Shown: positions 18,235 to 58,332 of the stretch, piece after piece | Layout: every line of letters begins with the position of its first letter | Position numbering within the stretch: the first letter of the stretch is position 1 | From: Chiloscyllium plagiosum | Taxonomy: Eukaryota | Reading direction: 5' to 3' | Length of the DNA stretch: 64,000 bases | Assembly (NCBI RefSeq): GCF_004010195.1 | Contig: NC_057755.1 | Coordinates: 1,997,803-2,061,802, forward strand | Program-made: the position numbers and the translations under genes | The notes under the pieces: model-generated | Database searches by the model: none | What the model saw: only the letters and a program-made list of their open reading frames with translations | What the model was told of the DNA's origin: nothing

Positions 18235-18301
18235 ATGCATCTTCTAAGGGAAAGGGTCGAAAAAGTGTACGACACCGTCCTCACCATTGTTGGTATTCCT
18301 G
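18235..18301 (+). CDS. Exon 1 of GPCR gene A (class A orphan GPCR, GPR139/GPR142-like)
   Basis: ATG at 18235 reads MHLLRERVEKVYDTVLTIVGIP plus one base, then G|gtaaat donor (phase 1). It is homologous to exon 1 of paralog B and supplies the first half of TM1 missing from ORF 20433-21311. Confidence 0.88.
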
Positions 18302-19833
18302 GTAAATCCTGGAACAGCTTAACTTTGATAAAGCTCTGCATTTAATCAAAATTACCTCCAATGTATAACAGATATTTATTTTTTTTCCATTTAGCAAGGC
18401 AATTACTGATGGGCATATGGTAGTGTCCGCAATAACTGAGTTTAAAATGAACAGCTTGTCAGTTAGGAGATTCCTCAGTAATGTGCAGCATTGTCTGTTT
18501 CTCTATACTGTGCAGAATGGGATTGCCCTGAGGCCACACTGATGGGGTTTAGCTGAGCACCAGCCGTGGCTGGTGTAGAAAGTGTTTCAAACGACCTCTC
18601 TCTCTCTCACTCTCTCTCTCTCTCACTCTCTCTCTCTCTGTGTTGGAGTCCAAAGCCTGCTATTGACCAGATGGGTTTTGTAACAACCCACCTCTTCGTG
18701 ATACCTGGTGTTTTCCACTCCTTGGACATGAAGGGATTTTTGTGTGGATCTTGATCAGGCAGGTCTCTCCAAATGGGAGCCCAGGTAAAACAGATGGACA
18801 ATGGATGGGATGACCAGGTTCTTATGGAATGATAAGTGAGGGTCATCACAAGTGCTGTCAATCATCTAGTGTGTACTGGTCAGTCAGTGGATGTGTGGGG
18901 GTATGATAATTGTGAGGACAGGTCACTGGTAGGGTTGTTCAGCACAGGGCTCCAATTATGATGCGTAATATTGAATTATTTGATTGTGAAAAAGCGTATG
19001 TCCCGTGTCATTTGCACAGTGCTTTGGTGCAGGGTCTAAAGAGACAACTACTGAGATCTGGAGTATAGTGTCAGCAGCTCTCCCACAGAGGATCAAACAA
19101 CTTTGTCCAATAGGATGTTTCCTACCTTGCCCTTTGTTGCTGTTACCCTTTGATGTTCCCTGAACAATAATGGGTTATGTGAAGGTGTTCCCACGTACCT
19201 TTGTTTGCGATTGTTGTTTGTTTTTTGGCTATCAATTCAGATTTGTATTTATTACTATCTCATGTGGTACAATTCCAGTGACCTCCATGGAGAATTACTG
19301 GGTAAATTATGGGGACCCCGAGCCCCAGAGGGCTCCGAATCTAGGAGGGTGATCTCTGTATACAAGGAAAGAGCCTAGGAGAGGCGCTTGGGTGTGTGCA
19401 GGCAGAAAACTATGCTGAATCCGAGATAGAGAGTCTGATTTCTCAAACAAAACTTTACAATGCTGCATGGATTCAGCTTTTGTTTGGGTGGAGGCTGTGG
19501 TGGACAGTCTTGGTCAGATGGGCGAGTCCGTGCCAAATGTTGAAGTTCTTGTGATTGTAATGGGAATCCAACCTGAGATATGGTGGTTGGATTCACTCAT
19601 GAATATCTTCATAGTTCAGAATATCACGATATTAAATGCTGCACTTGAGAAAGGGACTCTCTCGATTATTTGTTCATCCATTCCTGTCCACTGTGGAGTG
19701 ATTCGATGTGTCGTTTTTATGGTATGGATATACAATGCTTGAGCAATCTGTGGTTTGAGATTCCGAAATCGAATACAGCTATTGCAATCAGTGTCTGTGT
19801 CAGGTGTCTCCCGTTCTTGGTTTTGTTGATCCC

Positions 19834-20128
19834 AGATTACTTACAGTGTGGAAACGCCGAACAAATCCACACCGACCCGCCGAAGCGTATAGCACCCAGA
19901 CCCCTACATTTACCCCTTCACCTAACACTACGGACAATTTAGCATGGTCAATTCACCTAACCTGCACATTTTTGGATTGTGGGAGGAAACCGGTGCACCC
20001 GGAGAAAACCCACGCAGACACGGGGAGAATGTGCAAACTCCACACAGAGAGTCGCCTGAGGCGGGAATTGAACCTGGGTCTCTGGTGCTGTGAGGCAGCA
20101 GTGCTAACAACTGTGCCACCGTGCCGCC
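19834..20128 (-). mobile_element. tRNA-derived SINE (HE1/V-SINE-like) in the intron of GPCR gene A
   Basis: Head ggcggcacggtggcacagttgttagc (A box) and gggttcaattccc (B box), core tgtgtggagtttgcacattctccccgtgtctgcgtggg, and aatct tail. Confidence 0.88.
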
Positions 20129-20424
20129 ATGAGTCTGAGTAATCTATAAAACAGGTAAAATATATCTCTGCTGATCCCCCCAAAACAATTGAAGACATGA
20201 CTGTGTTTCTGCGAGAAATACTTTGCTAATGATTTTCCCTTTGTCATTTATAAGCGCAAATGATTTATTTTGAGAGAGCTTGTTGCTGTGGATCATATTC
20301 TTTAGACTACATCTGACATGGAAAACAACTATCTTTGTGCCATTACTTACAACCACAGTTCAAGTATGGAGAATGTTTGATTAATAAATTCAAGTATCTG
20401 TTCTTTCCTTTTTCTCTCTAACAG

Positions 20425-21311
20425 TTAGTCTCATGGTGATCATAACCTTAGCTCGTGGCAAGTGTGGTCTTTCTACATGCAGCACTCGCTATCTGGTGGC
20501 CATGGCAGCATCTGATCTACTGTTCATTATTTTTTATGTCCTACTTCGTCGATTTCCTTACTATTATTATCCACAGTGTTTCCTGGACATCACTCCTGTT
20601 TGTAGTGTGATCTATGTCCTGGTTCGTGTGACCATTGATTGTTCTGTCTGGTTCACTGCTGCTTTTACTTTTGATCGGTTTGTTGCCATTTGTTTTCATC
20701 AGATGAAATCTCAGTATTGCACAGAGAAAACTGCAATCAGGGTTCTAGCAACAATCTGCATTTTCTTTTCTTTAAAGAACATTCCCAACTACTTTCGATT
20801 TAGACCTGGAAAGATCAGCAATAATATTCCATGGTACTGCTATACCTACAACAGTTATTATTATGACCTCCGGTGGGCAAGTTTTAAACATTTTGAACAA
20901 TTTTTAACACCACTTTTCCCATTCATTTTTATTCTCTTTATCAATGTTCTGACTGTCAGACACATCTTCGAGGCTAATAAGGTGCGTAAGGGACTGAAGG
21001 TCCAAAACGAAACAGAAAATGACCCAGAGATCGGGAGCAGAAAGAAATCTGTGATTTTACTCTTTGCCATATCTGCAAGCTTTATCCTTCTCTGGTTGAT
21101 GTATATTTTATTTTTCTTTAATGCCAGCTACTCATTGGATTCTGCTGCTTATCATCTCTTTCTACAAGCTGCATATATGCTGCGGAACCTCAGTTGCTGC
21201 ACAAATGCCTTCATTTATGTGGTGACACAGAAAACATTCAGAGAACAGTTAATTTATGCAGCGAAATATCCAGTTATAACAATAATTCAAGTGATTGCTA
21301 AATCCAACTAA
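20425..21311 (+). CDS. Exon 2 of GPCR gene A, probable G-protein coupled receptor 139-like (7TM class A); spliced product 317 aa
   Basis: Polypyrimidine tract and acag acceptor end at 20424 and join exon 1 in frame (IVGIP-VSLMVII). Motifs: GKCGLSTCSTRYLVAMAASDLL (TM2), TPVC (TM3 Cys), FDRF, ECL2 PWYC, TPLFP (TM5), CTNAFIY (TM7), FREQL (helix 8). Open to TAA at 21311. Confidence 0.93.
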
Positions 21312-21711
21312 CTGAGTGGCGAAATGAAACATTGGAACGAGGAGTCTCTGTGAGGAATGGCCTGAAAGGAGAAGGAGGAGCAGCAATGTGATCACACTCC
21401 TTTTCTCATGGGCAAGGAATGACTCCATCTGAGGAACAACTTTAAAGGGGCTGGAGGAGTAAAGCCAGTGTAAAGTGCTGTTAGCAAGGAGCAACAGATT
21501 GCAAAAAGATGAACAACAAAGGCATAACCGACAGAGGACTTAGATCTGCCCCCCAAAAAATCAATCCAAGCAATCCATTCTCAGTGGGTGAACCAGATAC
21601 AAACTAATGACCTGGAGGAAAGGATCATTGTTCACTGCAGGCCCAGAGTGGGAACAGCAACGACAGGCTCTTTCCTGCTTTTCCTCATGGAGTTCCCTGT
21701 TCCACAGAAAT

Positions 21712-22625: not shown

Positions 22626-23239
22626 TGTCACTGAACTTGCTGTGGGTTGTGGCTTGGAAAGAGTTAGTAAACTAACAGCTTTGCCTGCATTCCTGTCCGA
22701 CTGACTTTGGAGAGGGTGCATGTGGGGCCCACCAACACCCTCAATGTCTTTGGGCACTAGAAGGGTGCAGGAGCCATATCTACCAATTTAACCCCTTTGT
22801 AAGATAAAGCCCTTCTTCTCTCCCTCCCGTCCCCTATTTTATTGTTATTGTTGCATTACGCTGATTGGAAATTATTATTTCAATTCGGACTCAGGCGATT
22901 GGGCAATGCTTTGCATTCGTTTCTTTATTTAAAAAAGCAACTGCGTTTGGTCACCAAGGCATAGGATTGGCGTTTGAGACAAGGGATTGGTCGGTCTCGG
23001 ATCTTTTGAGGATTGAGTCCTGCTCCCTTTGCTTTCTCACTGACATACGGCTGGGTGAACATTTCTGAATCGTCTCACACCTCCTGTTTCGCAGACTGAA
23101 ATGAAACTTAAATTTCGAGCGTTTTATTCCTCCAGCAAAGTGTAATGGCAGGGCCCAACCAGGTGACAGTTGACAGCAATGGGGAGATTGTCTTGCTGTT
23201 GTCAATAGTTTCACCCATTTACGGAACTGCGGAGATATT

Positions 23240-32511: not shown

Positions 32512-32591
32512 CTGGGGAACTCTGAACCAATGAGTTTGTCAGCATTGGTGGGTACAGAAATAAAGTAACATCAACAAATACGCAGAGAAGC

Positions 32592-34606
32592 GGAGATTGT
32601 TTATGTACGGAGTTTATGAAGCGGCCGACACGTGGACTGCTCTGGAGAGATTGTTTATACATGTGGAGCTTGGGGAGAGGCCTACATGTGGACACATTGT
32701 TTATATATGGAGCATGTGGAGAGACCTACATGTGGATGGCTCTGGTGAAATTGTTTAAATACAGAAGAGGCCAACACGTGGATAGTTCTGGTGAGATTGT
32801 TTATATATGGAGCTTGTGGAGAGGCCTACACGTGGACGGCTCTGGAGACATTCTTTATATACGGAGATTGTGGGGAGGCCTACATTTGGAAGGCTCTTCA
32901 GAGATTGTTTATATACAGAGCTTGTGGAGAGGCCTACACGTGGATGGCTCTGGAGAGATTGTTCATACACGGAGCTTGTGGAGAGGCCTGCATGTGGACA
33001 GCTCTGGAGCGATTGTTTATATACTCAGCTTGTGGAGAGGCCTACATGTCGACGGCTCCAGAGTGATTGTTTATACATGCAACTTGTGGCGAGGGCTACA
33101 TGTGGGAAGTTCTAGAGAGATTGTTTCTGTATGGAGCTTGTGGAGAGGCCTACATGTGAAAGCTCTTCAAAGATTGTTTATATACAGAGCTTGTGGAGAG
33201 CCCTACACATGGACGGATCTGGAGACATTGTTTATTTATAGAGCTTGTGAAGAAGTCTACATGTGAACGGCTCCAGAGTAATTGTTTAAATGCGGAGCTT
33301 GTAGAGAGGCCAATATGTGGAAGGCTCTTCAGATATTGTTTATATACGGAGCTTGTGGAGAGGCCTACACGTGGATCGTTCTGGATATACGTTTGATACA
33401 TGTGGAGCTTGTGGAGAGGCCTACTGGTGGACAGCTCTGGAGCGAATGTTTATATTCGGAGCTTGTGGAAAGGCCTACACGTGGACGGCTCTGGAGAGAT
33501 TGTTTATATGCGGAGCTTGTGGAGAGGCTTACACATGGGCAGCTCTGGAGAGATTGATTATATGTGGAGCTTTTGGAGAGCTGAAAATGTGTTGCTGGAA
33601 AAGTGCAGCAGGTCAGGCAGCATCCAAGGAGCAGGAGAATCGACGTTTCGCGCATGAGCCCTTCTTCCAGCATCTGCAGTCCTCACGTTCTCCTCGGAGC
33701 TTTGGTAGAGGCCTACTCATGGATGGCTCTGGATGGAATGTTTAATTATGGAGCTTGTGGAGAGGACTACACGTGGACAGCTCTGGTGAGATTGTTTATA
33801 CATTGGAGCTTGGGGAGAGGCCTACATGTGGACGGTTCTGGAGAGATTGTTCGTATACGGAGCTTGTGGAGAGGCCTACACGTGGACTGTTCTGAAGAGA
33901 TTGTTTATATATGGAGCTCATAGAGAGGCCGACATGTGGCTCGCTCTGGAGAGATTGTTTATATACGGAACTTGTGGAGTGGCCTACACGTGGATGGCTC
34001 TGGAGAGATTGTTCATATGCGGAGCTTGTGGAGAGGCCGACACGTTGCTGGCTCTGGAGAGATTGTTCATATACGGAGCTTGTGGAGAGACGTACACATG
34101 GACAGTTCTGGAGAGATTGTATATACACGGAGCCTATGGAGAGGCCTACACGTGGACGGTTCTGGAGAGATTGTTTACATACTGATCTTGTAGAGAGGGC
34201 TACTCATGGACAGTTTGGGAGATACTCTTTATATACGGAACTTGTGGAGAAACCTCCACGTGGACGGTACTGGAGAGATTGTTTATATACGGAGCTTATG
34301 GAGAGACCTACACTTCGACGGTTCTGGAGAGATTGTTTATATACAGAGCTTATGGAGAGTTCTACACGTTGCTAGCTCTGGAGACATTGTTTATATACGG
34401 AGCTTGTGGAGAGGCCTACACGTGGAAAGTTCTGGAGACATTGTTTATATACGGAGGTTGTGAATAGACCCACAAGTGGACGGTTCTGGAGAGATTGTTT
34501 ATATATGGAGCATGTGGAGAGGCCTACACGTGGTCGGCTCTGGTGAGATTGTTTCTGTACCCAGTGCTCGTGGAGAGGTGTACGCGTGGACAGCACTGGA
34601 GAGAAC
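32592..34606. repeat. 54-bp minisatellite, ~35 diverged units
   Basis: Consensus gagattgtttatatacggagcttgtggagaggcctacacgtggacggctctgga; 18-aa periodicity in the ORF track. Confidence 0.93.
33581..33695. mobile_element. PLE family A mini insertion within the 54-bp minisatellite
   Basis: Family A tails in opposite orientations. A 15-bp array segment is imperfectly duplicated (33566-33580 and 33696-33710). Confidence 0.78.
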
Positions 34607-40327: not shown

Positions 40328-41636
40328 CACCTGTAATGTGACATGAACCCAAGGTCCCGGTTGAGGCCCTCCCTATGGGTACCGAACTTAGCTATCAGCC
40401 TCTGCTCAGCCACTTTCCTCTGCTGCCTATCCCGAAGTCCACCTTGGAGGATGGTCACCCGAAGGGTCGAGGCAAAGTGTCCTGGACCACTGAAGTGTTC
40501 CCCAACTGGGAGGGAAGCCTCCTATCTTTTGATTGTTGTGCGGTGTCGTAGCCTTTGCTCAGTTTCCCCAATGTACCATGCCTCTGGGCAACCCTGCCTG
40601 CAACGTATAAGATAGACAATGTTGGCTGAGTCACATGAGTACCTGCCATGTACACGGTGGGAGGTATTCCCACGCGAAATAGTGGTATCTCTGTCCACAA
40701 TCTGACACGTTTTGCAGCGTCCACCGTGACAGGGTTGTATGGAGTTGTCCTGAGAGCCAGGCAGTGTGCTACGAACAATGATCTGTTTGAGATTTGGCGG
40801 TTGTTTGAAGGCAAGTAGTGGAGGTGTGGGGAAGGTCTTGGTGAGGTGCTCATCTCCATTGATAATGTGTTGTAGGTCACGAAGAACATGGCGTAATTTT
40901 TCAGCCCCTGGGAAGTACTGAACAACGAAAGGTACCCTGTCAATTGCAGCCCATGTCTGTCTCCTGAGGAGGTCATTACGGTTCCTTGCTGTGGCACGTC
41001 GGAACTGGCGGTCGATGAGTTGAACATTGTACCGGGTCCTTGTGAGGGCATCCTTGAGTACTTCCAGGTATCCGTCACGTTCCTCCTCATCTGAGCAGAA
41101 CCGGTGTTTGCGTAGGGCTTGTCCATAGGGAATGGCTGTTTTAATATGTTTTGGGTGGAAGCTGAAGAAGTGTAGCATTGTGAGGTTGTCTGTGTGTTTG
41201 CGGTATAGTGTGGTGCTGAGGTGTCCGTCCTTGATGGAGACTCACGTGTCCAAGAATGAGACAGACAGTCGAAAGTAGTCCATGGTGAGTTTGATGGTGG
41301 GATGAAAATTGTTGATGTCACTGTGTAGTTTTATCAGTGACTCCTCGCCATGGGTCCAGAGGAAGAAAATGTCATCAATGTACCTGGTGTACAATGTCGG
41401 TTGGAGATCCTGCATAGAGAAGAAATCTTGTTCGAACCTGTGCATAAAAATGTTGGCATATTGGGGTGCAAATTTGGTCCCCATGGCTGTTCCGTGTGTC
41501 TGGATGAAGAATTGCTTGTCAAAGGTGAAGACGTTATGATCGAGGATAAAGCGAATGAGTTGTAGGATGGTGTTTGGAGACTGGCAGTTGTTGGTGTTGA
41601 GTACTGAGCCTATTGCCGCGATGCCATCATTGTGGG
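40328..41636 (-). pseudogene. Inverted partial copy of the Penelope RT/GIY-YIG ORF
   Basis: ORFs 41242-41643 and 40522-41178 are near-identical to the plus-strand copy, share its internal TGA and carry a private TAG. Confidence 0.88.
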
Positions 41637-41659
41637 ACAACATTGTGTGACAAAATTAT

Positions 41660-43837
41660 CACTGCGGGGAAGTCTATTGTCAACTTATTGGACCACACCC
41701 TTCGACCGGAAGAGATTGAGGTCCTGAGTAGGGGTCTCAACTTCTGCCCCACCACCAAAATGGACCCGTTGGTTTTGGCAGCAGACACAGAGGAGTTCGT
41801 CAGACGAATGAGACTCCGGGAATTCTTTCAAGGTGCCGGCATTGATCCAACTGAGCCCACTGATGAACTAGAACAGTCATCACAGGGATCTGTAGAGGAG
41901 CGACCAAAGAAGGCCGCTGCCCTGGGCTTGACATGTATGCTCAAACTGTCAGGAAATATATAAATGCCAGATTCATCATCCGTACCCATAAGGTAGAGCA
42001 AAACACCACCCGTTCCCAACGCAATGCCATCCAGGCTCTGAAAACCAATCACACCATTGTCATCAAACCAGCAGATAAAGGAGGAGCCGTTGTCATTCAG
42101 AATAGAATAGGTTACGGCAAGGAAGTGTACCGACAACTGAACCACCAGGAACACGACAGGCAACTACCAACTGATCCGACCAAAGAACATATCCGAGAAT
42201 TAAACACACTGATCAGAACTTTGGATCCAGTCCTTCAGAGCTCCCTACACGCACTCATCCCACGTACTTTTCGTGTAGGCGACTTCTACTGCCTTCCAAA
42301 GGTACACAAAGCCAACACACCGGGACGTCCCATCGTGTCGGGAAATGGGACCCTATGTGAGAATCTCTCTGGCTATGTGGAAGGCATCTTGAAACCTATT
42401 GTACAGGGGATCCACAGCTTCTGTCGCGACACTACGGATTTCTTACAGAAACTCAGTGCCCATGGACCAGTCGAACCAGGAACATTCCTCGTCACAATGG
42501 ATGTTTCCGCACTCTACACCAGCATCCCCCACAATGATGGCATCGCGGCAACAGCCTCAGTACTCAACACCAACAACTGCCAGTCTCCAAACACCATCCT
42601 ACAACTCATTCGCTTTATCCTCGATCATAACGTCTTCACCTTTGACAAGCAATTCTTCAACCAGACACACGGAACAGCCATGGGGACCAGATTTGCACCC
42701 CAATATGCCAACATTTTTATGCACAGGTTCGAACAAGATTTCTACTCTATGCAGGATCTCCAACCGACATTGTACACCAGGTACATTGATGACATTTTCT
42801 TCCTCTGGACCCATGGCGAGGAGTCACTGATAAAACTACACAGTGACATCAACAATTTTCATCCCACCATCAAACTCACCATGGACTACTTTCGACTGTC
42901 TGTCTCATTCTTGGACACGTGAGTCTCCATCAAGGGCGGACACCTCAGCACCACACTATACCGCAAACACACAGGCAACCTCACAATGCTACACTTCTCC
43001 AGCTTCCACCCAAAACATATTAAAACAGCCATTCCCTATGGACAAGCCCTACGCAAACACCGGTTCTGCTCAGATGAGGAGGAACGTGACGGACACCTGG
43101 AAGTACTCAAGGAAGCCCACACAAGAACGGGGTACAATGTTCAACTCATCGACCGCCAGTTCCGACGTGCCACAGCAAGGAACCGTAATGATCTCCTCAG
43201 GAGACAGACATGGGCTGCAATTGACAGGGTACCCTTCGTTGTTCAGTACTTCCCAGGGGCTGAAAAATTACGCCATGTTCTTCGTGACCTACAACACATT
43301 ATCAATGGAGATGAGCACCTCACCAAGACCTTCCCCACACCTCCACTACTTGCCTTCAAACAACCGCCAAACCTCATACAGATCATTGTTCGTAGCAAAC
43401 TGCCCGGGTCTCAGGACAACTCCATACAACCCTGTCACGGTGGACGCTGCAAAACGTGTCAGATTGTGGACATAGATACCACTATTACGCGTGGGAACAC
43501 CTCCCACCGTGTACATGGCAGGTACTCATCTGACTCAGCCAACATTGTCTTTCTTATACGTTGCAGGCAGGGATGCCCAGAGGCATGGTACATTGGGGAA
43601 ACTGAGCAAAGGCTACGACACCGCACAACAATCAACAGACAGGAGGGTTCCCTCCCAGTTGGGGAACACTTCAGTGGCCCAGGACATTCAGCCTCGGACA
43701 TTCGGGTGACCATCCTCCAAGGTGGACTTCGGGACAGGCAGCAGAGGAAAGTGGCTGAGCAGAGGCTGATAGCTAGGTTCGGTACCCATAGGGAGGGCCT
43801 CAACCAGGACCTTGGGTTCATGTCACATTACAGGTGA
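41660..43837 (+). pseudogene. Disrupted Penelope RT + GIY-YIG endonuclease ORF (5'-truncated)
   Basis: ORF pieces 41613-41963, 41933-42922 and 42986-43837, with a frameshift near 41910 and an in-frame TGA at 42920-42922 (FLDT*VSIK). Confidence 0.88.
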
Positions 43838-44494
43838 TCACCATTGCACTACACACACACAGATATTCCGACACACACACACACACACTCTCATATGCAC
43901 ACGGACACAGATACACACAGACGCGCACACAGACATCCACACACAGACTCCCACACATACACCCCCTCACAGACTTAAGACACTCTGTACTCACTACACA
44001 CACACACACACACACTTTCTCACACTCACAACCCACACCCCAGACAGACACACACACACAGGCAGACAAAGACACACATGCACACATATATATTGTGTGT
44101 GGTGAATTTTTTTGGTGCAAAGTTACATTGTACTTTGCTCAAAAAACACATAGATTCATGTCGAACTCTGAGCTCAAAGACTGCATGAATTTATGTAAAA
44201 CTCTGTTATTTCACTTTTTAGATTGGAATCAATCTAAACATCAGGTCATCGACAGAGAACACAGGGGGCTAACACCTTCAACACATTGTCTAGCTATCAC
44301 CATTGTTAACAGCTAACTCGAGAATACAATTTTAAAAAAAGTTTGTGATTTACACATGAAAGAAGTGAAACTATCACTGTATTCTAACAGATGAAAGGCT
44401 TAACAGAAAATCAATTCTTCAATGTATAATTTCAGTTACATCACACTGCAAATTTTTGCTATAAATTCTGTGTTACAATCGAGCCCTCCACAAT

Positions 44495-44530
44495 CACCTG
44501 ATGAAGGAGCGTCGCTCAGAAAGCTAGTGT
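44495..44530 (+). ncRNA. Minimal hammerhead ribozyme motif in the PLE family B terminal repeat
   Basis: cac-CTGATGA-a-GGAGC-gtc-GCTCa-GAAA-g-CTA-gtg contains the CUGANGA and GAAA cores, stem II, an NUH triplet and a short cac/gtg stem I. A mutated mirror copy lies at ~39598-39634. Confidence 0.7.
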
Positions 44531-47500
44531 GCTTCCAATTAAACCTGTTGGACTATAACCTGGTGTTGTGTGATTTTTAACCTTTGTGTCGTCTGCAAAC
44601 TTGCTGACCCATTCTTCAATCCCCTTATCCAAGTCATCAATAGAAAATTACAAACAGTAGAGGTACAAGAACAGATCCGTGTGGAACACCACTCACCACA
44701 GACTTCCAGGCCGAATATTTTCCTTCAACTACCACTCGCTGTCTTCTGTTGGCCAGCCAATTCTGTATCCAAACAGCTAAGTTCCCCTGTATCCCATTCC
44801 TCCTGACCTTCTGAATGAGCCTACCATGGGGAACCTTATCAAATGTCATATACACCACAACCACAGCTCGACCCTCATCAACTTTTCTAGTCACATCCTC
44901 AAAGAACTCGGTAAGATTTGTTAGGTATGATCTGCCCCTCACAAAGCCATGTTGACTGCATTCAATCAATCCATGCTCTTCCAGATGGTTATAACTCCTA
45001 TCCCTCAGAATCCTTTCTAAAACTTTGCAGACAACAGACCTGAGACTTACTGGTCTTTAATTGCCGGAGATTTCCCTATTTCCTTCCTTGCAGAGAGGAA
45101 TTACATTTGCCTCTCTCCAGTCCTCAGGTACGACTCCAGTGGAGAGTGAGGATGCAAATATCTTCGCAACTGGCGAAGCAATCACATTTCTCGTTTCCCA
45201 AAGCAGCCGAGGACAAATCTCGTCCGGGCTTGGCGACTTGTCAATCTTAACGTTTGACAAAATTTTCAGCACATCAGCTTCCTCTATCTCTATCCATTCC
45301 AGTCTGCTCACCTGCTCTTCAAAGGTTTCATTCATTGCAAAGTTCATTTCTTTCGTAAAGACAGAAGCAAAAAACTCATTTAGGGCTTTCCCGACCTCCT
45401 CAGACTCCACACACAAGTTCTCTATGCTATCTCTGATCGGCCCTACTCTTTCTTTGACCATTCTCTTATTCCTCACATAAGTGTAAAATGCCTTTGTGTT
45501 CTCCCTAATCCGTTCTGCCAAGCCTTTCTCGTGCCCCCTCTTGGCTCTCCTCAGACCATTTTTGAGCTCCTTCCTCGCCTGCCTGTAATCCTCTAGTGAT
45601 GAGCTTGACCCTAACTTCCTCCACCTTATGTAAGCTACCTTCTTCCTTTGGACGAGAAGCTCCACCACTCTCTTACCCCTTCTTGCCTGTCTCAGAGGGA
45701 CATATTTATTCATCACTCGCAACAACTGTTCCTTAAACAGTCTCCACATGTCTATAGTGCCTTTACCATTGAACAATTGCTCTTATTCCATGCTTCCTAA
45801 ATCATGACTAATCGCATCATAGATTCCTCTTCCCCAATTAAATATCCTCCCATTAGGATCCTCCTAATCCTCTCATTCTCTATAGATATGTAGAATGTGA
45901 GGCAGTTGTGGTCATTATCACCAAAATGCTCTCCCACCACAGGATCAGATATCTGCCCCGGCTCCTTTCCGAGCACCAAGTCTAGAATGGCCTCATCCCT
46001 TGTCGGTCTGTCAACGTACTGAGTTAGGAAACCCTCCAGAAACAGACCTTACATTCAAATCTTCTGCTCGAAGGAGGTTCCAATCAATATTATGAAAGTT
46101 AAAGTCACCCATTACAACAACCCTACTACATCCACACTTTTCCAAAATCTGTCGACCTATGCTTTCTTTAATCTCCCTGCTGCTATTGTGGGCCTGTAGT
46201 AAATCCCTAACGAGGTAACTGTTCCCTTGCTGTTCCTAATTTCCACCCATACTGACTCGGTAGGAAGATCTTCCTTGACAATGGAAGTTTATATATCTGT
46301 GATAGCCTCTCTGATTAGTAGTGATACACCCCCTCCTCTTTTCCCCCCTCCCTATTCTTTTCAAATGTTCTAAACCCTGGAACATCCAGCAACCACTCCT
46401 GTCCCTGAGAAACCCATATCTCTGATATGACCACAACATCATAGCACCAGGTACTGATCCATGCTCTAAGTTCATCACTTTTATTCCTGATACTCCTTGC
46501 GTTAAAGCAAACACACTTTAACTGGTCCCTTTCTTCCTTTCCAGGAATATCCTTCCCACTAGCTGCTCTATTTCTTGATATTGCCTCATCTGCATCAACT
46601 CTCACCTCTGGTATACCGCTCAGGTTACCACCCCCCAGCCATACTAGTTTAAACCTTCTCGAACTACTTGAGCAAACCTTCCACTCAGGACATTGGTCTC
46701 CTTCCAGTTCAGATGCAACCCATTCTCTATGTACAGGCCCCACCTTCCCCAGAAGGCATCCCAATTATCTACATATCTGAAGCCTTCCCTCCTACACCAG
46801 CTGTACAGCCACGCATTAGACTGCGCCCGTTCCCTGTTCCTTGCCTCGTTATCTCGTGGCACCGGTAGTAATCTAGATAACACTATTCTATTCGTCTAGC
46901 TTTGCAGCTTCCATCCTAACTCCCTGAAATCACTTATTATATCCTCAATCCTTTTTTTTGGCTATGTCATTAGTGCCAATATGTAACACGATTTCTGGCA
47001 GTTCGCCCTCCCCATTTTTGGCCTTATACACACGATCGGAGACGTCTCAAACCCTGGCACCAGGGATGCAAAATACCTTCTGGGAATCTTGATCCTGACC
47101 ACAAAATCTCCTGTCGATTCCCCTAACTATTGAGTCCCCTATCACGACTACTTTTCTATTCTGCCCCCTTCCCTGCTTTGCCACAGTATCAGGCTCAGTG
47201 CCAGAGAACTGACCACTATGGCTTTCCTCTGGAGGTCATCCCCCCCAGCAGTATCCAAAACTGTATACTTATTGCTGAAGGGAATGTCCACAGGGGATCT
47301 CTGCACTGCCTGCCTGTCCCCTTTCCTCCCCCTAACTGTAACCCATCTATCCTTGTCCTGAGCCTTAGGAATGACCAACTCCTGGTAACTCCTCTCAGTT
47401 ACCCCCCCAGTCTCCCGAATGATCCGTAGTTCATCCAGCTCCAGCTCCAATTCCCTAAAACGGTTTTCACGGAGTTGGAGTTGGGTGCACTTCCTTGCTG

Positions 47501-49749: not shown

Positions 49750-50635
49750 TAGATTTATAGAGTCATCGAGGTGTACAGCATGGAAACAGATTTTTCGGTC
49801 CAACCCGTCCATGCCGACCAGATATCCCAACCGAATTAGTCCCAACTTCCAGCACCCAGCCCATATCCCTCCAAACCCTTCCCATTCTTTTCCCGATCCA
49901 AATTCCTCTTAAATGTTGTGATTGTACGAGCCTCCACCATTTCCTCTGGCAGCTCATTCCATTCACATGCCACCCTCTGTTTGAAAATGTTGTCCCTTGG
50001 TCTCTTTGATACCTTTCCCCTCTCACCCTAAACCTATGTCCTCTAGTTCTGGACTATTCCACCCCAGGGAAAAGACTCTATTTATCCTATCTATGCCCCT
50101 CATAGTTTTGTAAACCTCTGTAAGGTCATCCCTCAGCCTCGGCGCTTCAGGGAAAACTGGTCCAGTCTGTTCAGCCTCTCCCTATAGCTCAAATCCTCCA
50201 AGGAGAAGTGAGGATGCTGGAGTACCAGAGATGTTGGAGTACCAGAGTTGAAAAATGTAGTGCTGGAAAAACACAGCAGGCCAGGAAGCATCCGAAGAGC
50301 AGGTGAATTAACGCTTCAGACATAAGCCCTTCTTCAGGAATCTTTTGAAAAGAGTCCATGAGGGGTCAGTCGGTTCCGTAGGCAGGTGCTGAGGAAGGAG
50401 ATGTGGCTGTGGTAGCGAGTCTGTTTCAGGACATGACTGAAGAAATTCAGGACAAAGCTGAATGCCCGAAACGTCGATTCTCCTGCTCCTCGGATGCTAC
50501 ATGGCTTGCTGTGTTTTTCCAGCACCACATTTTTCAACTCAAATCCTCCAACCCTGGTGACATCCTTGTAAATCTTTTCTGAACCCTTTCAAGTTTCACA
50601 ACATCTTTCCGATAGGAAGGAAACCAAAATTGGCA
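49750..50635 (-). mobile_element. CR1 LINE 3' fragment (interrupted by a PLE pair)
   Basis: Near-identical in structure to 9403-9900. Confidence 0.8.
50202..50537. mobile_element. PLE family A inverted pair with an extra internal segment, inserted in CR1
   Basis: Perfect 14-bp duplication ctcaaatcctccaa at 50188-50201 and 50538-50551, with inverted tails. Confidence 0.82.
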
Positions 50636-50639
50636 CGGG

Positions 50640-50992
50640 AATTGGTTTAGGATCTGTGTTACATATGAAAACAATGGAATGAATGACCGTTTCCCTGCTG
50701 ATGAGCTGTGAGGCAGGGGATGGGTTTAGGAGCTGTGTTACAGATGGAGGCAACGGACTGAATGACTGCTTACCCGATGATAAGCTGTGAGACAGTGGGC
50801 TTGGTTTAGGATCTGGTTTACAGATGTAAACATTGGAATGAATGACTGTTTCCCCGATGATGAGCTGTGAGGCAGGGAGATGGGTTTAGGAGCTGTGTTA
50901 CACATGGACACAATGGAATGAATGACTGTTTCCGCGATGATGAGCTGTGAGGCAATGGATGTGTTTAGGAGCTGGTTGACAGATGGAAACAG
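50640..50992. repeat. ~80-bp tandem repeat, ~4.5 copies
   Basis: ggtttaggagctgtgttacagatgg...gaatgaatgactgtttcccgatgatgagctgtgaggc recurs near 50644, 50722, 50802, 50883 and 50963. Confidence 0.88.
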
Positions 50993-51743
50993 CCATCTTG
51001 GAGGTGATGTGGGTTGAACTAATCTCATACTCCATTATGAAGCCACAAACGAACAGGCTTCATTCAGAGTGAATTCCCCTTGAGTTGGGTGGAGTCAGTG
51101 AGAGCCACACAACCTTTTCATAGAAGCACGGAGGATATCGGCTCATCCCCCACATCCCATTCCCGAGCTTCAGTTCCCAACTACCCCCGAGACCTCTGAT
51201 TGGGCCTTGGGTTCTCCATCAACACAGCAGCTGATTGGTGGGAAAAAAACAAATAAAGAAAGGGAGTGATATTAGCATTAAACCGGGGGCAGCTGAATGA
51301 AACTCCAGATGGAGGTCAAACTTCTCTTTTTTTTTACTTTTATACAGACCTGAGTATTCCATGAGGAAGAGTGGACAGGAGCCTGTCATTGCTGTTCACC
51401 CTGCAATGAAGGCTGATCCTTTCCTCCAGTTCTGTTTATTGTATCCTTGTCACTTGCTGTGAACTGAATACTAGGGACGACTTTTTTGGAAGGCACACAT
51501 AATTCCATTTTTGGTTATGCTTTTGTTGTTCAGCTTTCTCCTGACTATTGCTCCTTTGTAACGGTTGCTCCTTTACTCTGGCTTCACTCCTGCAGGGTAT
51601 CTCATGTTGTTCCTCAGATGGAGTAAGTCCTTGCCCCTGAGAAAAGGAGTGTTTTCATGCTACTGCTCCTCCTTCTCCTTTCGGGCCATTTTTCATGTAG
51701 ACTCCTCATTCCATTAGCTGCTACAGCGAATGTTGTCACTCAG

Positions 51744-52624
51744 TTACTTGGATTTATTCACCAATTGAATTATTTTTATAGCTGGATATTTCACTGCATT
51801 CTTTAACTGGTCTCTGAAACTATTCTGTGTCACCACATAAATCACTGCATTGGTGCAGCAACTGAGGTTCCGCAGTTTATATGCAACTTTTTCAAAGAGA
51901 TAAAAATCATCCACGTAATAACCAATACCATATAAATATATAATATACACCAACCAGAGCAGTATGAAGCTGGCAGAGATAGCAAACAGTAAAGTCACAG
52001 ATTTATTTCTGCTCACTATCTCTGGGTCATTCTCTGTTTTTGTCTGACCCCTCAGTCCCTTACGCGCCTTATTGGCCTCAAAGATGTGTCTGACTGTCAG
52101 AACATTGAGAAAGAGAATCAAAATGAATGGAAGAAGTGGTGTTATAAATGATTCAATATATCTATAAGTCACCCACAAATGATCATTAAAGTAATCGTAA
52201 CTGGTGTAACAATACCACGGAACATTGTCGATGATCCTTCCAGGTTCAAGTCGAAAATAGTTGGGAATGTTCTTTACAGAAAAAAAAATACAGATAGTTG
52301 CCAGAACTCGCTTCGCAGTTTTCTCTGTGCAATACTGAGATTTCATCTGATGAAAACAAATGGCGACAAATCGATCAAAAGAAAAACCGACAGTGAAGCA
52401 GACAGAACAATCAACTGTGAAGTCAGTCAGGACCCAGTTTACACTACAAACAGGAGTGATGTCCAGGAAACACAGTGGATAATAATAGTATTTAACCTGA
52501 ATAAGTATGACCTCAAAAATAATGAACAGTAGATCAGATACAGCCATCGCGACCAGATAGCGAGTGGTGCATGTCGAAAGTCCACACTTGTCACCAGACA
52601 AGAACACAATCGCCGCTAGACTAA
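51744..52624 (-). CDS. Exon 2 of GPCR gene B, probable G-protein coupled receptor 139-like; spliced product 315 aa
   Basis: Acceptor tttctttctcttgcag ends at 52625 and joins in frame (VGVP-VSLAAIV). Intact 7TM ORF with AVSDLL, TPVC, FDRF, PWYC, TPLLP and CTNAVIY. The first ~23 aa of the ORF-track call (to 52694) are intronic. Confidence 0.93.
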
Positions 52625-53769
52625 CTGCAAGAGAAAGAAATAAAGATTTGAAGTTAACTGATCGAATATTCTCCGTGCCAGATGGTTTTAACACAAAGAT
52701 GTTTGTATGTCAGATCACCTGAACCATTACAGTTCTCACTGTCAAATGGATTATTTTCACTTTTAAATTTGTTGGGAATTACATGACGATCAAATAACTC
52801 CCAGGAACATAATACATTCTCAATATTTTTGAAGTGGTCAGTAATTAATTTCTTCTAGGCAAAAGACTCCCAGAGGCTCCCTGTCTCTATTCCTGATGAA
52901 GGGCTTTTGTCCAAAATATCGATTTTCCTGCACCTCGGATGCTGCCTGATCTGTTGTGCTTTTCCAGCACCACTCTTATCTAAACAATTAATTTATTCTG
53001 ATTTGCAGGTGACTCTGACTGGCTGGAGATGCTCATAAGACCACAACATCCAAACAAAATCACCCAGGATCAATGGGAGACACGGAGGACGGACATTGAT
53101 TACAAACTTCCTGAACTTCGTTGTGGAGTCTCCAAAGCTCAGATTGCTTCCAGGATTGGGCATTCACACTGTGTAACTATGGTACAGGGCAGTGAATCCT
53201 TCCAGTGTTCAGGAATGGATGCTCTCTACAACGTGAATGAAGAAATGATTGGTCATCGAACTGCCACCCTTCACATTTCCACCCCACCCCCACAATCCCA
53301 CTTGTACAGTATTGAAAGTAAAGACAATCTGAAACATGGAAGTTTTCAGCATGGAATCCAACCACCATGTCCCAAGTTGGGTGCCCACTGCAATCAGAAG
53401 AATGTTAATAGTTGATATAGACTCCTCCCACAATGTTAATGATTGTATAGCACAGCCCCCACTCAAGCAAATTCTGAATTGATGCAGCTTTGGTCATTGC
53501 AAATTTCCGGTTTGGAAATCATGAGATGACGCAAAGCTTCCTGCCTGATGTCCAGGCTCCTGCAGTTCGCCTTGTGAACAGAGATCACCCTCCCAGATTC
53601 AGAGTAGAAGCTGGGGCTAGCAATCCCCATAGTGTAAGCAGCACCCTCTATGGAGGTCACTGGAATTGTATCCCAGCTTGTTCTGGCGACCCATACATTG
53701 TATGATTGCTTGGTATCAGAGACTGTTTTTGCGGATTCAGTCCAATGTCAAGCATTTAGGGAGATGAGA

Positions 53770-53930
53770 AGAGATAGTGAGGACTGCAAATGCAGAAGAT
53801 CAGAGTCGAGAGTGTGGTGGGAGAAAAGCACAGCATTACTGATGAAGGGTTGATGCCTGAAACGTCGATTCTCCTGCTCCTTGTATACTGCCTGACCTGC
53901 TGTGCTTTCCAGCATCACTCTCTCGACTCA
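53770..53930. mobile_element. PLE family A mini inverted pair (intron of GPCR gene B)
   Basis: gtgaggactgcaaatgc... followed by ctgatgaagggttgatgcctgaaacgtcg...ctctcgactc. Confidence 0.7.
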
Positions 53931-54048
53931 ATGTCTGCTATGGCAGACAATGAAATTTGAGTTCAATCAAAATCTGGACGTAACAGTCTAATGGTGACCA
54001 TTAAACTGTTGTCAATTGTCATGAAAACAAAATGTATCTCCTTTACAA

Positions 54049-54320
54049 ACGTCCCTTAGAGAAGATAATCTTTCATCCTAACATGGACTGGCCTATAGAT
54101 GACTCTAAACACATGACAAACTGGTTACTCTTACGTGCTCTCTGGGCAATTAGGGATGGGCGGTCATTACTGGCTGAGGCATTAGAAACGTCCCTTAGAG
54201 AAGATAATCTTTCATCCTAACATGGACTGGCCTATAGATGACTCCAAACACATGACAAACTGGTGACTCTTCCGTGCTGTCTGGGCAATTAGGGATGGGC
54301 GGTCATTACTGGCTGAGGCA
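54049..54320. repeat. ~137-bp tandem duplication
   Basis: aacgtcccttagagaagataatctttcatcc...ggctgaggca occurs twice. Confidence 0.85.
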
Positions 54321-57300
54321 GTGACACCCACATGCATTGAATATATAACAGGAAATGGAGTTCCCCACACATACCTAACTCTCCAGTATAGACAACTCCT
54401 CCCCTTTTTACAGCATCCCATTGAAATGAATATTCCGAATCTAAGTTTATTGTGACAAACATGCAACTCCCAAAATCGATCCACTTTTGAAGATAAGAGA
54501 TCGTTCACTCGATTCATCACAGTAACACATAGGCCAGGTGCCAGCACAGACAACTGAGGGAAAAGGATTTGTCTCTTGGCTTTGATACTCACAAGAGTTC
54601 AGTAACCCATTGGAATCAACCAATTGAGACATAACACGAACTGTCCTCTGGGATAATAGACGCTCTGAATTTAGCAATACCTCAGCACAAAGCATCCAAC
54701 CTTTCACTTTGAATGATTCTCCTGTCCTTTATTGTACAGGAAATTCCCATCGACACAAATCCCCTTTGGATTCACAGATGTTTTCTTGAAGAGATAGTAA
54801 TCGTGATCATTTTTAAATGTGCTCATGCAATGTAAGTTTTGGCCAGGCCAGTGTTGATTGCCCAGCTCTAATCGCCATTTTGATGCTGTTGGATATCTGG
54901 CTTTTTGAATATCTGTAATGCCAGGGATGCAGGAAATTCCACAGAGTTTTCAGAAGGGAGTTCCATAAATATTACCCGGCAATAGTGATGATACAACCAT
55001 ATACTGCATTTCCAAGTCGGAATGAAATCTGTTTTGAGAGAGAACTTGTATGGGACAGTGTTTCTGATCACCTGCAGCCCTTGGCCATGGGTCATGTGTT
55101 TATGAGGTGCTGTTGAAAGAGAGTTGGGGAGTTCCTCGTTTGCATCTTGTAGGTGGTACCCATTTTTGGTCATGGATGGTGAAGAGTGTGAGGACGAAAT
55201 GTGGTGATTATGCATTACAAACAACCAATAAGGAGTTCTGTGAATGATGCACTCAGCCAGATCCATGAGAGAGCATTCCATCCCATCCCTGAGCTCGGCT
55301 TTCTGGACGTAGGAGATGGATTGGAGAGGGAGGCGGGCAGCGTATTACTACAGGATTCATGTATAATATATGTCTGATATATAACAATTTTATGGCCAGA
55401 CAAGTTCATTTTCTTGTCCATGGTTGGCCCAGGTCATGCATTCAGTGACGGTAACGACATAGTAAGCTAATGGCAGATTGGTACATTCTCATTTTTCGAG
55501 ACAGTTGTTAGCTGGTACTTGTGGGACGGTAATGTTACTTTCCAATTGTCAGCCAAAATTCGGTGTTATGTCACTGTATATGGATACAGATGTCTTCATT
55601 ACCTAAGGAGTTGTAAATGGTGCTGCATATTGCATGACCATGTGCAAACCTCTTTACTTTAGAAATGATTATGGAGGGAATGGATGAGATGAGGCATTTT
55701 TTTAATCTGTGGTCGAGGATACAATCCTGAAGAATTCCTGCAGAGATGTCCCATGGCTGAGGTTATTGACCTTCATCAGCCATACCATCCTGTCCTGCAT
55801 TCAGAATTGAAACCGAAACAAGCTGTAATCTCACTGAGTTCAGGTCGTTGAGGCTTGCTCTTGTGAATATGGGTTCATAATTAATATGCTTAAGAGCTGA
55901 ATATTTCTTTTCAGTCATTAAAATATAACTATAAAAGTAGGCAAATGTAATTGAGGAACAGGTAATCAATGTTTCTGTAAATGCAAGACAATCCTGAGTT
56001 CGTCACGATTTAGAGTGAACATGTGGTTGTACTGGAATGTCAGAGGCGATGGAACAAAACTGTACAATGTGTGATTGAGGTTGGATACCCTTCAGAGTCA
56101 GCCTGTTTGTCATTAGCACACAAAAAGAACAGAAAAGCTCTCACAGTTCTGGAAATGACTTATGTGAGCTCTGTTATTGACATAGTGTGTACGGATGGTG
56201 GGTATAACCGAATCAGGTCAATGTCTCATTCACAGTTTCTGTATTTAATGTAACATGTTCTGTATGCTGCACTGTTAATTCTCTGTAATGCTGTCCAACA
56301 CAATTATTCACCACAGTCATAATATTGCAGGTACTAGTCAGTTATTTGATGAAACAACGTATTCATGCACATTTTCTTTATTTTTCTGCATTGCCTTATG
56401 ACTGATTTTTGCATGGCCCTCATCAAATCCTCATCCTCCCAAGGAGAACATGCATCGTGAAGCAGCGATCACTGTAACATTAACTGTGGCTAGATCTACA
56501 GTTTATTGTAGATCTAATAAACAATAGATCTAATCAGACACAGAGGTGAAATAGTGGTAACCAGCCGAGGTGATATCCATCCTCATTAACATATGGATAA
56601 TGATTGAGAATAGTCATGTCCCAGAGTCTATCCTAACATTGCTGGAAGATTAATCGCTCCCAAAAATATTATTTAAGGAAACGTTGTATGTCCTTGAAGC
56701 AACTAATTGAATTCACACTGTGGTTTGCTTATTTTCATTTTTTGCAAGAGGTCACAACTATTCATCTCCAATAGAACACTGCAAACTAAGTATCAAATGT
56801 ACCAACCAAAGATTTTCCCACTTGTACGCCCTCATATTTCCAAACTACGTTGATAGCTCAATCAGTGAACAGATCAGAAATGTGAAATGAGGAATGTAGC
56901 ATAAAAGAAGCATCGCATGGTTTCAGACAAATTATGTTCCTAATTATAATTACATTCAAGTATTCCCTTTCATTCAGTTCCCCGTGAGTTATATTCTAAC
57001 CTCAGAGATACTCCTTCTTTTGCAAGACCACTGGAGTGAATTGTTTCCGAATAGTTGGTAACTCATACTCAGTGTAATTGTATTTTGACAGCTATTCCCA
57101 GTAACACTTGGAGACTGGGCTTGTTGTCCTCCTTTTGCTAAGGTCCCAGACCCAGTTAGAATTTTACAGAAAGCTGCTCACTGCATCACATTGCCACGGG
57201 AATCGGATGTTGCCTTCATGTTATTGACCCACATTTTATACAGCTCTCTCCACTTAAAGATATTCCCAATAATATTTACAATTAAGGTCATGGATATTCC

Positions 57301-58265
57301 TCCCTTCGTGCCATACACTGACAGCAATGCTGTGTTTACAGATACCCGAGAAATGCAACAATACTTGGTCAGAAGTTCACATCTGAGCGGTTATCCATAC
57401 TCAGTACAATTCTACAATGACACATACTCTGAGAAACATGAGGCAACAGTAATAAGAGGTTAATCCCCACTCAGTACAACTCCATGATCAGGAATATCTT
57501 CATTCAGAATGATTTCTGGAAATCTTGATAATCAGTCCACTACTATCTAATCTATCTCTGGATAATGTCAAGTGTGTATGAACTACAGATAGAGATTTTA
57601 TTTTCTCAGTTCAGGAATTACACCACAGAGTTAGTTTAAAAATGTTAACTATCTACATTTCTATCACACACTTGGAACTCATATTAACATAATTACCTGC
57701 CCTCAAAATCATTCCTCCACACATCCACTGACTAAGGAAAGCACACAAGATCATTAAGGTCATCTGCCCTTTGTTTATCATTCCATAATGACCTGCGCAA
57801 TGCACCCGTTGCCCACCTGATGAATCTGGGCTCCCATTTGGAGCGAGCGACCTGTGCAAAACCCATCAACATAATCCCTTCAGATCAAGGAATGGAAAAC
57901 ACCAGGTATCACTAAGAGGTGAGTTGTTACAAAACCCTTCTGACCAATAGCAGGCTTTGAACTCCCACAGAGAGAGAGAGTGGTTTTGCTAAACACTTTC
58001 TCGACCAGCCTGGGCCCGTGCTCAGCCAAACCCAATCAATGTGACCTCAGGAAATTCTGCACAGTATAGAGAAACAGACAATACTGGACACTACTGAGGA
58101 GCCTCATAATTGACAAACTGTTTGTTTTAAACACAGTGAGAACACTATTATCAGGCATCGGGATTTGTCTTACTGAGTGGAAATAAAATAATTATTAGTC
58201 ATTAAGCTGAAAAGAGTCTGATGTAATGCAGAGATTTATACAAACTAAATTGTAAGAAGACTTAC

Positions 58266-58332
58266 CAGGAACACCAACAATAGCAAAGATGGTGTAATAT
58301 ACTTTAGCGACCATTTCCCTTGTCAGATTCAT
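58266..58332 (-). CDS. Exon 1 of GPCR gene B (GPR139-like)
   Basis: Minus-strand ATG at 58332 reads MNLTREMVAKVYYTIFAIVGVP plus G, then a canonical gtaagt donor. Same length (67 nt) and phase as exon 1 of gene A. Confidence 0.9.

Follow-up and report, generated by a model that had tools for sequence, protein, structure and literature searches.

The window analyzed here (the whole 64-kb stretch of DNA) carries two paralogous receptor genes, designated A and B, and raises the question of whether these are orthologs of GPR139 or members of a separate, expanded family of chemical sensors, as a first-pass annotation had suggested. The evidence points to a family of over a thousand copies that stands apart from GPR139 and GPR142 and that, with a probability of roughly 0.6, constitutes a repertoire of olfactory type that detects amino-acid or peptide cues. 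A chemosensory role is likely on the basis of genomic signature and promoter architecture: because the family has fast-changing ligand-facing surfaces and many copies have promoters resembling those of smell genes, the receptors are likely to be overlooked chemical sensors.

Gene A lies on the forward strand and consists of exon 1 (18235–18301; 22 codons plus one base), which contains the start codon and the first part of TM1, a phase-1 GT–AG intron (18302–20424) preceding the codon for position 1.50, and exon 2 (20425–21311), which runs in an open frame from the end of TM1 to the stop codon. Gene B, on the reverse strand, comprises exon 1 (58332–58266; 22 codons plus one base), a phase-1 GT–AG intron (52625–58265) and an open exon 2 (52624–51744). 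Splicing was read from the DNA sequence; both spliced two-exon frames are open and encode proteins of 317 (A) and 315 (B) amino-acid residues. Each protein has seven helices and matches Pfam 7tm_1 (B also matches Srw weakly), as expected of class A (rhodopsin-like) GPCRs. The class A marks D2.50, DR3.50, P5.50, W6.48, N7.49 and Y7.53 were found; P6.50 and P7.50 are missing throughout the family, and position 1.50 is Ser in both A and B. Eight of the motif fragments quoted previously (DRFVAI, TRYLVAM, KCGLS and the pocket segments among them) were located, and the quoted segments are present in the A/B alignment, which supports the reality of this two-exon class A pair. The common two-exon layout and very short N-terminus were likewise seen, but are ancestral, because a single-copy sister gene has both, with its intron at the matching position, and are no sign of sensory specialization. 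Elsewhere in the window, the search found neither another family gene nor a relic of one.

The A and B proteins are identical at 217 of 318 aligned positions (68%); by region, identity is 53/105 on the extracellular face, 84/101 in the helix core and 56/73 in the intracellular part. ICL2 is identical as claimed (16/16 positions), whereas ICL1, which had been described as nearly identical, matches at 9 of 13. The dN/dS ratio between A and B is 0.78 in extracellular regions and 0.31 elsewhere, and the reported divergence of ligand-facing positions with a change of charge was recovered at 3.33 (Arg in A, Asp in B). The description of both genes as intact holds for the reading frames, but gene B has two odd substitutions in exon 2: a Cys at 3.41, a site occupied by Trp in 200 of 201 family sequences, and a Lys at 7.40 that is seen in 1 of 201. 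Because its twin, B′, retains Trp and Met at these sites, gene B may be impaired, judging from its sequence; omega between B and B′ is near 1 (small numbers). The twins B′ and A′ are borne by the second arm of a large inverted duplication, which lies just outside the window and is 89–97% identical to the arm at 9653–58975.

If A and B were true orthologs or recent duplicates of GPR139 or GPR142, they would be expected to sense Trp and Phe. This explanation draws on the automatic name "probable GPR139" given to shark and ray relatives (among the best 120 of 1,940 matches), and on two features that place the family in the GPR139-related superfamily: the phase-1 intron before position 1.50 is shared, and a PDB search with the family profile ranks human GPR139 first (E 6e-14; just 16th of 18 in a search with a single sequence). 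However, the genome was found to carry one GPR139 and one GPR142 at other sites, which share 24–26% identity with gene A. In the tree, the family and GPR139/GPR142 form separate clades, and joining them is rejected by the AU test (p 0.034). Four pocket residues are key to the response of GPR139 to Trp and Phe (F3x33, H5x43, W6x48 and N7x38; PMC5430874), and W6.48 alone is kept in the family. Both the tree and the existence of true orthologs thus reject a GPR139/GPR142 identity of A and B, which is scarcely tenable and which, for GPR139, the annotation had already doubted.

The same annotation had framed GPR139 and GPR142 as the relatives, whereas the nearest are two other conserved orphan genes, also auto-named "probable GPR139", which fall in one clade with the family (support 100/98). 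The first is present from sharks to squamates (coelacanth XP_005988539) and the second in bichirs (XP_028654722), and each has an ortholog in this genome, with one copy each found. They are possibly the "GPR210" subtypes of PMC6504862. In sequence-based phylogeny the family therefore forms its own clade adjoining these two genes, and no bony-vertebrate ortholog of the family itself was found among the best 120 of 1,940 matches.

Family expansion, as proposed, was confirmed, but its size had been far underestimated. Two motifs gave 1,299 and 1,777 exact matches genome-wide, compared with 45 and 9 for reversed controls; at least 389 distinct loci were listed, 55 of them with stops by hand count. 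When 40 matches were sampled on eight contigs (C1–C8), 36 belonged to the family, 16 of these with an open exon 2 and 20 broken or partial. Members of diverse kinds were found in at least 11 shark and ray genera among the best 120 of 1,940 matches. This is a very large, clustered birth-and-death family of over a thousand copies with pseudogenes, and the alternative of one or two members is clearly contradicted. It has grown by segmental and inverted duplication, giving clusters on small chromosomes as well as dispersed copies, and its losses are pseudogenes.

Such growth could itself account for most of the copy number: segmental duplication and the repeat-driven spread of a cassette would incidentally have produced copies that are for the most part redundant or decaying, rather than a tuned repertoire. 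The broken or partial state of 20 of the 36 sampled copies is in line with this, as are the flanks that copies have in common over as much as about 8 kb, accompanied by satellite arrays, the many loci on unplaced contigs and the near-neutral omega of gene B against its twin. The spread of diverse members over shark and ray genera argues against it, and so does the finding that no pair among 79 sequences exceeds 98.2% identity, a low-power test in which allelic duplicates were likewise not seen. The explanation is further weakened by the pattern of selection and is very improbable overall. Sites under selection are almost solely extracellular; in the helix core and the intracellular regions, omega is 0.33–0.37.

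In codon models (M2a versus M1a), the window's subfamily (39 sequences) gives an LRT of 86.8, with 6.9% of sites at omega 2.6, and a second, fast-evolving subfamily (40 sequences) gives an LRT of 705, with 5.5% of sites at omega 8.0. Positively selected sites are extracellular in 7 of 8 cases in the former and 16 of 16 in the latter, where they reach omega of about 8–11 and show 6–13 different residues each among the 40 sequences. The result stands on a tree made without extracellular codons, and dS is alike across regions in the window's subfamily. Site-wise dN/dS thus indicates diversifying selection on extracellular sites and clearly contradicts uniform purifying selection. At the level of sequence, positive selection has diversified the extracellular loops and the tops of the helices while the G-protein face has stayed constant, the combination of diversified ligand face and constrained signaling face expected of a chemoreceptor repertoire.

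The intensity of this selection also bears on the main rival, an innate immune or pathogen-sensing repertoire, comprising either the whole family or its fast branch, that would act on leukocytes or barrier epithelia by FPR- or MRGPR-like recognition of fast-changing microbial or parasite peptides. Outer loops with an omega at about 8 are more arms-race-like than is typical of odorant receptors, and the 16 selected extracellular sites and the scatter of young copies (83–92% identical) across many chromosomes fit this explanation. Peptide and chemokine receptors are among the closest folds, which is not discriminating. EBF sites are also known from B-cell promoters, and EBF and homeodomain factors act in B cells and in other neurons as well. 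Against an immune role, neuronal or neuroendocrine receptors are the nearest relatives, and a homeodomain site accompanies the EBF-like site of the family at a constant distance, an arrangement known from olfactory enhancers. We therefore regard an immune repertoire as unlikely, though the strongest of the competing explanations.

The pairing just mentioned is part of a core-promoter module (homeodomain site, O/E (EBF) site and TATA box) shared by diverged family members. In the window the module is degenerate and fits weakly (best scores 4.2 and 5.3): the putative proximal promoter of gene A (18103–18142, forward strand) has homeodomain-like and O/E-like sites, both degenerate, and then a TATA box, and that of gene B (58430–58468, reverse strand) has a homeodomain-like site, an O/E-like site and a weak TATA. 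The de novo motif score is 330, compared with 219–230 in six control sets. In a search interval of −140 to −50 that was picked after the data had been seen, and with consensus strings taken as background knowledge, an O/E-like site was found in 16 of 24 family promoters (34/240 controls), a homeodomain site in 11 of 24 (26/240) and the adjacent homeodomain–O/E composite in 8 of 24 (2/216), the promoters compared being paralogous. A strict pattern derived from the family itself has 32 genome matches compared with 3 in the control, and 28 of the 30 matches examined directly precede a family first exon. The module is absent from the single-copy sister gene, and no first exon or promoter of the fast-evolving subfamily was found within 7–27 kb upstream in the loci scanned. 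First exons of GPR139, GPR142 and the bichir-type gene were not found in the stretches examined, and the negative controls therefore exclude these genes. The core promoter is kept among promoters that otherwise hardly align, which argues again against a mere by-product of duplication. In mouse, OR enhancers are described as driven by adjacent homeodomain and O/E sites (PMC5608512, PMC7804114).

An olfactory-type repertoire has to be weighed against chemosensory use outside the nose, in taste buds, solitary chemosensory cells of the skin or gills, gut endocrine cells, gametes or the reproductive tract, for nutrients or conspecific peptides. The genomic signature would be identical, and GPR142 is an amino-acid sensor of the gut and islet. 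To our knowledge, no taste or gut repertoire reaches hundreds of open genes, which counts against such a use. GPR139 is reported to respond to Trp and Phe (PMC5430874), and catshark OR genes that are not expressed in the nose are described (PMC10116579), which implies that receptor class does not fix the tissue in sharks; conversely, the homeodomain and O/E module is the signature of olfactory neurons in the mammalian work cited (PMC5608512, PMC7804114). Overall, a non-nasal role appears rather improbable. A search with the stretch itself listed no RNA data set that carries it. For the family, 66 mostly paralogous reads occur in about 2% of the single-cell run X6, which has no tissue label, but just 2 of these are at 95–99% identity and DNA carry-over is possible, and run X7 from the same sample contains none. 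In a catshark brain and olfactory library, no GPCR appears among the top 50 genes given (PMC11979771), a ranking that sparsely expressed receptors would escape.

For an olfactory-type repertoire, factors of the Lhx2/Emx2 type together with EBF would turn on single members in olfactory, probably microvillous, neurons. Each receptor would take a different ligand, predicted to be an external cue of the amino-acid or peptide type, in an open peptide-type pocket with a C3.25–ECL2 disulfide, a predicted β-hairpin and almost no N-terminus, and all receptors would signal through one common G protein. Among relatives, aromatic amino acids or peptides are described as ligands (PMC5430874, PMC12208981). 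A more specific proposal is that sharks and rays possess their own main olfactory family, with several hundred working genes, which arose from a GPR139-related peptide-receptor ancestor independently of OR, TAAR, V1R and V2R, uses a mammalian-type homeodomain/EBF code and has one branch in an arms race over peptide cues; this is held tentatively, at somewhat less than an even chance. If true, it would overturn the idea that shark olfaction depends on just a few dozen receptors. Regardless of tissue, one wrong automatic name has concealed a GPCR family comparable in size to the mammalian odorant receptors. The 2019 white shark genome paper reportedly noted a few dozen "GPR139" copies, and no paper describing the family was found in the literature covered, which excluded subscription papers and supplements. 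Cartilaginous fishes are described as having large olfactory organs and a repertoire of a few dozen receptors (about 34 V2Rs in sharks and 4–9 genes per other family), an open paradox (PMC10116579) that becomes testable with existing olfactory RNA-seq, given hundreds of open genes with selected ligand surfaces and olfactory-type promoters. The statement that sharks are GPCR-poor (PMC8455134) would also have to be revised. Natural entry points to ligands are provided by the conserved orphan sister genes.

Compared with known systems, the family shares with the class A orphans GPR139 and GPR142 (PDB 7VUG, 9M42) the phase-1 intron before 1.50, W3.41 and the N7.49-x-x-x-Y7.53 sequence without proline. 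GPR139 and GPR142 lack the C3.25–ECL2 disulfide and have P6.50 (P6.50–R6.51), whereas the family shows the opposite (C3.25 in 198/201 sequences, the ECL2 Cys in 201/201, and Pro absent from the residues listed at 6.50); they also have F3.33, H5x43 and N7x38, which the family lacks, and were found in one copy each, versus over a thousand. As in the family, the two conserved orphans combine a short N-terminus with the same exon layout, disulfide and ICL1 cysteine motif, but the pocket of the one found from sharks to squamates is near-invariant across vertebrates. Foldseek (generic peptide receptors, TM about 0.6–0.7) and Atlas (generic 7tm_1 clusters) do not discriminate between functions.

Vertebrate chemoreceptors (OR, TAAR, V1R/ORA, V2R/OlfC and FPR-rs) are likewise large, clustered birth-and-death families with a variable pocket and a constant signaling face; they also have homeodomain and O/E promoter sites, to which the family's module, degenerate in A and B, may correspond. 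A and B have no Pfam match to OR, TAAR, V1R, V2R or T2R families at E 0.01, such receptors are absent from the PDB matches listed, and their sequences were not included in the family tree. The family differs from them in its origin in the GPR139/MIP/FMRFamide-receptor group and in its one coding intron. From this wider group, Srw and Aplysia receptors have been co-opted for chemosensation. The group includes invertebrate MIP/sex-peptide, proctolin and FMRFamide receptors and nematode Srw (PMC12208981), of which the family is an independent vertebrate expansion; in the tree, vertebrate groups are linked against the invertebrate sequences with weak support (89/54). In the mouse Greek Island Lhx2/Ebf composite, the homeodomain site lies two bases before the O/E-like site, as in the family (PMC5608512), and the J element has the same spacing, as deduced from a mutagenesis primer (PMC7804114). 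The mouse composite, as described in these sources, is a mark of enhancers that seldom occurs in promoters, whereas the shark module, a predicted pair of binding sites, lies in the core promoter at a fixed distance from the TATA box.

Gene A (exon 1 at 18235–18301 and exon 2 at 20425–21311 of the window, plus strand; 317 aa) and gene B (exon 1 at 58332–58266 and exon 2 at 52624–51744, minus strand; 315 aa) are convergent, and the first-pass annotation of two intact two-exon receptor genes is borne out by their open frames, phase-1 GT-AG introns, and Pfam match to 7tm_1. An AlphaFold model of gene A exon 2 (pLDDT 76, pTM 0.72) contains the helices and a β-hairpin in extracellular loop 2 (ECL2); a fold comparison of the model gave generic peptide receptors. 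The proteins are 68% identical. They share 53 of 105 residues extracellularly, 84 of 101 within the core of the helices, and 56 of 73 intracellularly, and dN/dS is 0.78 in the extracellular part versus 0.31 elsewhere; the suspected contrast between a conserved inside and a divergent ligand side is therefore real. Position 1.50, which is Asn in nearly all class A receptors, carries Ser in gene A (20427–20429), gene B (52620–52622), and most of their subfamily. Judging from its sequence, gene B may be impaired, because it has two residues that each occur in 1 of 201 family sequences, Cys at 3.41 and Lys at 7.40.

Both genes lie in one arm (9653–58975) of an inverted duplication, which is 89–97% identical to the other arm with the twins B′ and A′. 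Between 50466–58975 and the arm past the window, identity is about 97% in the inner part and about 90% in the outer part, a difference suggesting that the arms have undergone conversion close to the centre. A 500-base assembly gap adjoins the end of this arm (about 58980–59480), and another lies at about 3310–3810. Presumably Penelope-like retroelement frames, whose motifs resemble reverse transcriptase and endonuclease, occupy 35359–36219 and 39548–44580, and an inverted pair (39548–41636 and 44580–42528) is 94.7% identical. Tandem arrays have units of 54 bp (32766–34604), 80 bp (50644–50991), and 69 bp (62143–62543); the long repetitive open frames from the 54-bp array are probably not genes.

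Two loci in the genome match a short GPR139 motif: GPR139, 95% identical to that of another shark and 85% to the human protein, and a GPR142-like gene 55% identical to the GPR139 locus. Gene A shares 24–26% identity with these. A GPR139/142 profile search revealed two further orphan lineages. The first is conserved in sharks, sturgeon, teleosts, coelacanth, amphibians, turtles, and squamates; the 120 matches listed include no named mammal or bird. One copy of it was found in the source genome (L133, G000:C26:36600778-36601743). This gene (L133, L157) is automatically named GPR139 and has a near-invariant pocket; two database entries of its lineage carry names fused with TMEM183A, which suggests that it lies beside TMEM183A. 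The second, known from bichirs, has an orthologue in the source genome (L134, G000:C98156:21314-22201), about 7 kb upstream of which a homeodomain and O/E-like (EBF-type) motif precedes a short frame that is unlikely to be the first exon of this gene. The unstudied 'GPR210' subtypes of fishes and coelacanth, named next to GPR139/142 (PMC6504862), may correspond to these orphan lineages.

In a mixture-model tree of 46 selected rows (a quick tree was also built), the family forms a clade (100/100) that joins the two orphan genes (100/98), and GPR139/142 stand apart (100/100). A forced topology uniting the family with GPR139/142 was rejected (p-AU 0.034). The family and the first orphan have the same intron before position 1.50 as GPR139/142, whereas the C3.25–ECL2 disulfide, absent in GPR139/142, is kept in the family, P6.50 is lost, and W6.48 alone is retained of the four residues described as required for Trp/Phe activation (PMC5430874). 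The separate clades, the rejected topology, and the true GPR139 elsewhere in the genome uphold the earlier view that the window genes are not GPR139 orthologues, and that the family is true GPR139 is extremely improbable.

Searching the 3.56-Gb genome with gene A gave 133 scored loci of 7,956 candidates, all 67–100% identical; a second-subfamily query gave 135 matches (83–100%) and a sister-gene query, using the first orphan, 121 additional presumed members; when seven of these were added to the tree, six grouped with the family and the seventh was another orphan gene. The combined lists hold 389 loci without coordinate overlap, 55 of them with stops (a hand count, in lists biased to intact copies), and at least 38 family loci lie on the window's own 12.8-Mb contig. 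Exact motifs matched 1,299 times for TM3 (45 in the reversed control) and 1,777 times for TM7 (9 in the control), and these are lower bounds because the motifs recover 1 and 5 of 11 diverse loci. The expanded paralogous family proposed from the window is thus real and large. Among 40 TM3 matches hand-picked, non-randomly, from the first 100 listed (contigs C1–C8), 36 belong to the family and 16 have an open exon 2, including two whose C-terminal tail contains a stop. This sample suggests roughly 500–750 open copies, a figure in which assembly errors may mimic frameshifts and unplaced contigs may contain alleles; the highest pairwise identity among 79 sequences is 98.2%. Among 1,940 database relatives, the best 120 belong exclusively to 11 genera of sharks and rays, mostly under the automatic name 'probable GPR139'; the closest is from zebra shark (74%), which makes a carpet shark the probable source of the window. 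A 2019 white shark paper reportedly noted a few dozen 'GPR139' copies, and no description of the family was found in the open literature; shark repertoire papers cover established receptor families only (PMC6368271, PMC10116579).

Codon models used open exon-2 frames only, excluding broken copies, with 39 sequences of the window subfamily and 40 of the second subfamily among 81 distinct frames (two, from other subfamilies, were set aside); M0 likelihoods agree with those of IQ-TREE. M2a was favoured over M1a in the window subfamily (LRT 86.8; ω 2.6 at 6.9% of sites) and the second subfamily (LRT 705; ω 8.0 at 5.5% of sites), and with trees from non-extracellular codons the LRT rises to 129 and 1,046, respectively. 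Seven of eight confident sites in the window subfamily are extracellular (Fisher p 0.004), at the top of TM2, in ECL2, and at 5.36, 5.43, and 7.32, as are 16 of 16 in the second, with 6–13 residues per site. Diversifying selection on extracellular sites, in line with the first-pass view, is thereby supported. It is an excess at few sites, since mean extracellular ω is 0.66 in the window subfamily and 1.16, not clearly above 1, in the second; core and intracellular ω is 0.33–0.36 in both. Synonymous length differs little by region in the window subfamily (5.2 versus 5.0). In the second it is somewhat elevated (3.1 versus 2.2), and part of the signal there may therefore stem from gene conversion. 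A by-product of duplication is a very unlikely reading of the family, and an immune-sensing role is an unlikely one. The second subfamily (L049, L073–L102; contigs C8, C10, C18, C22, C27, C37, C39, and others) is young and dispersed, and its copies have common flanks bearing satellites of 40 and 65 bp; a search 7–27 kb upstream of the loci scanned found no first exon. The subfamilies may differ in role.

First exons, nearly all of 21–23 codons with one common donor, were located at 28 of 40 diverse loci. Though the promoters are mostly unalignable, 23 located loci and gene A have in common a module of a homeodomain site, two bases, an O/E-like site, about 13 bases, and TATA, of which genes A and B carry degenerate versions only. 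Its de novo score is 330, versus 219–230 in introns, distal DNA, and shuffles. In a test region picked after inspection, the O/E consensus string occurs in 16 of 24 promoters versus 34 of 240 controls, the homeodomain string in 11 of 24 versus 26 of 240, and the composite in 8 of 24 versus 2 of 216. A strict pattern derived from the family itself matches 32 places versus 3 in the control. Of 30 matching loci examined (two overlapping on one contig, several near-copies), 28 lie directly before a first exon of the family, whether intact or broken. EBF is not confined to olfactory neurons. Chemosensing in other tissues is a rather improbable alternative.

No RNA data set was listed as containing the window. 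Four sequencing runs were compared with gene A exon 2 at 80% likeness. Single-cell run X6 yielded 66 reads in about 2% of the run (two at 95–99%, none at ≥99%), run X7 of the same sample yielded no matching reads at this threshold, and the further run X8, RNA by guess, yielded 32 contigs. The X6 sample may express some members of the family. The text of a catshark atlas does not mention the family, and the top 50 brain and olfactory genes it gives include no GPCR (PMC11979771).

The genes thus belong to a separate, very large GPCR family that is duplicating and decaying; its signalling face is constant, its ligand face is under selection, and its core promoter is conserved. With a probability of about 0.6, it is an olfactory-neuron repertoire for amino-acid or peptide cues, in which homeodomain and EBF factors would switch on single members in neurons of the microvillous, Go/TRPC2 type described for sharks (PMC10116579), each receptor detecting different cues; the cues are judged from ancestry (PMC12208981) and from the open pocket of peptide type. 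By the genomic criteria that were tested, the family is like an odorant-receptor repertoire and lies outside GPR139/142 and the known chemoreceptor families. Mouse odorant-receptor enhancers are described as driven by adjacent sites for Ebf and the homeodomain factor Lhx2, sites in which the promoters are also enriched (PMC5608512), and the two-base spacing of the family module is that of the mouse J element, as deduced from a primer (PMC7804114).
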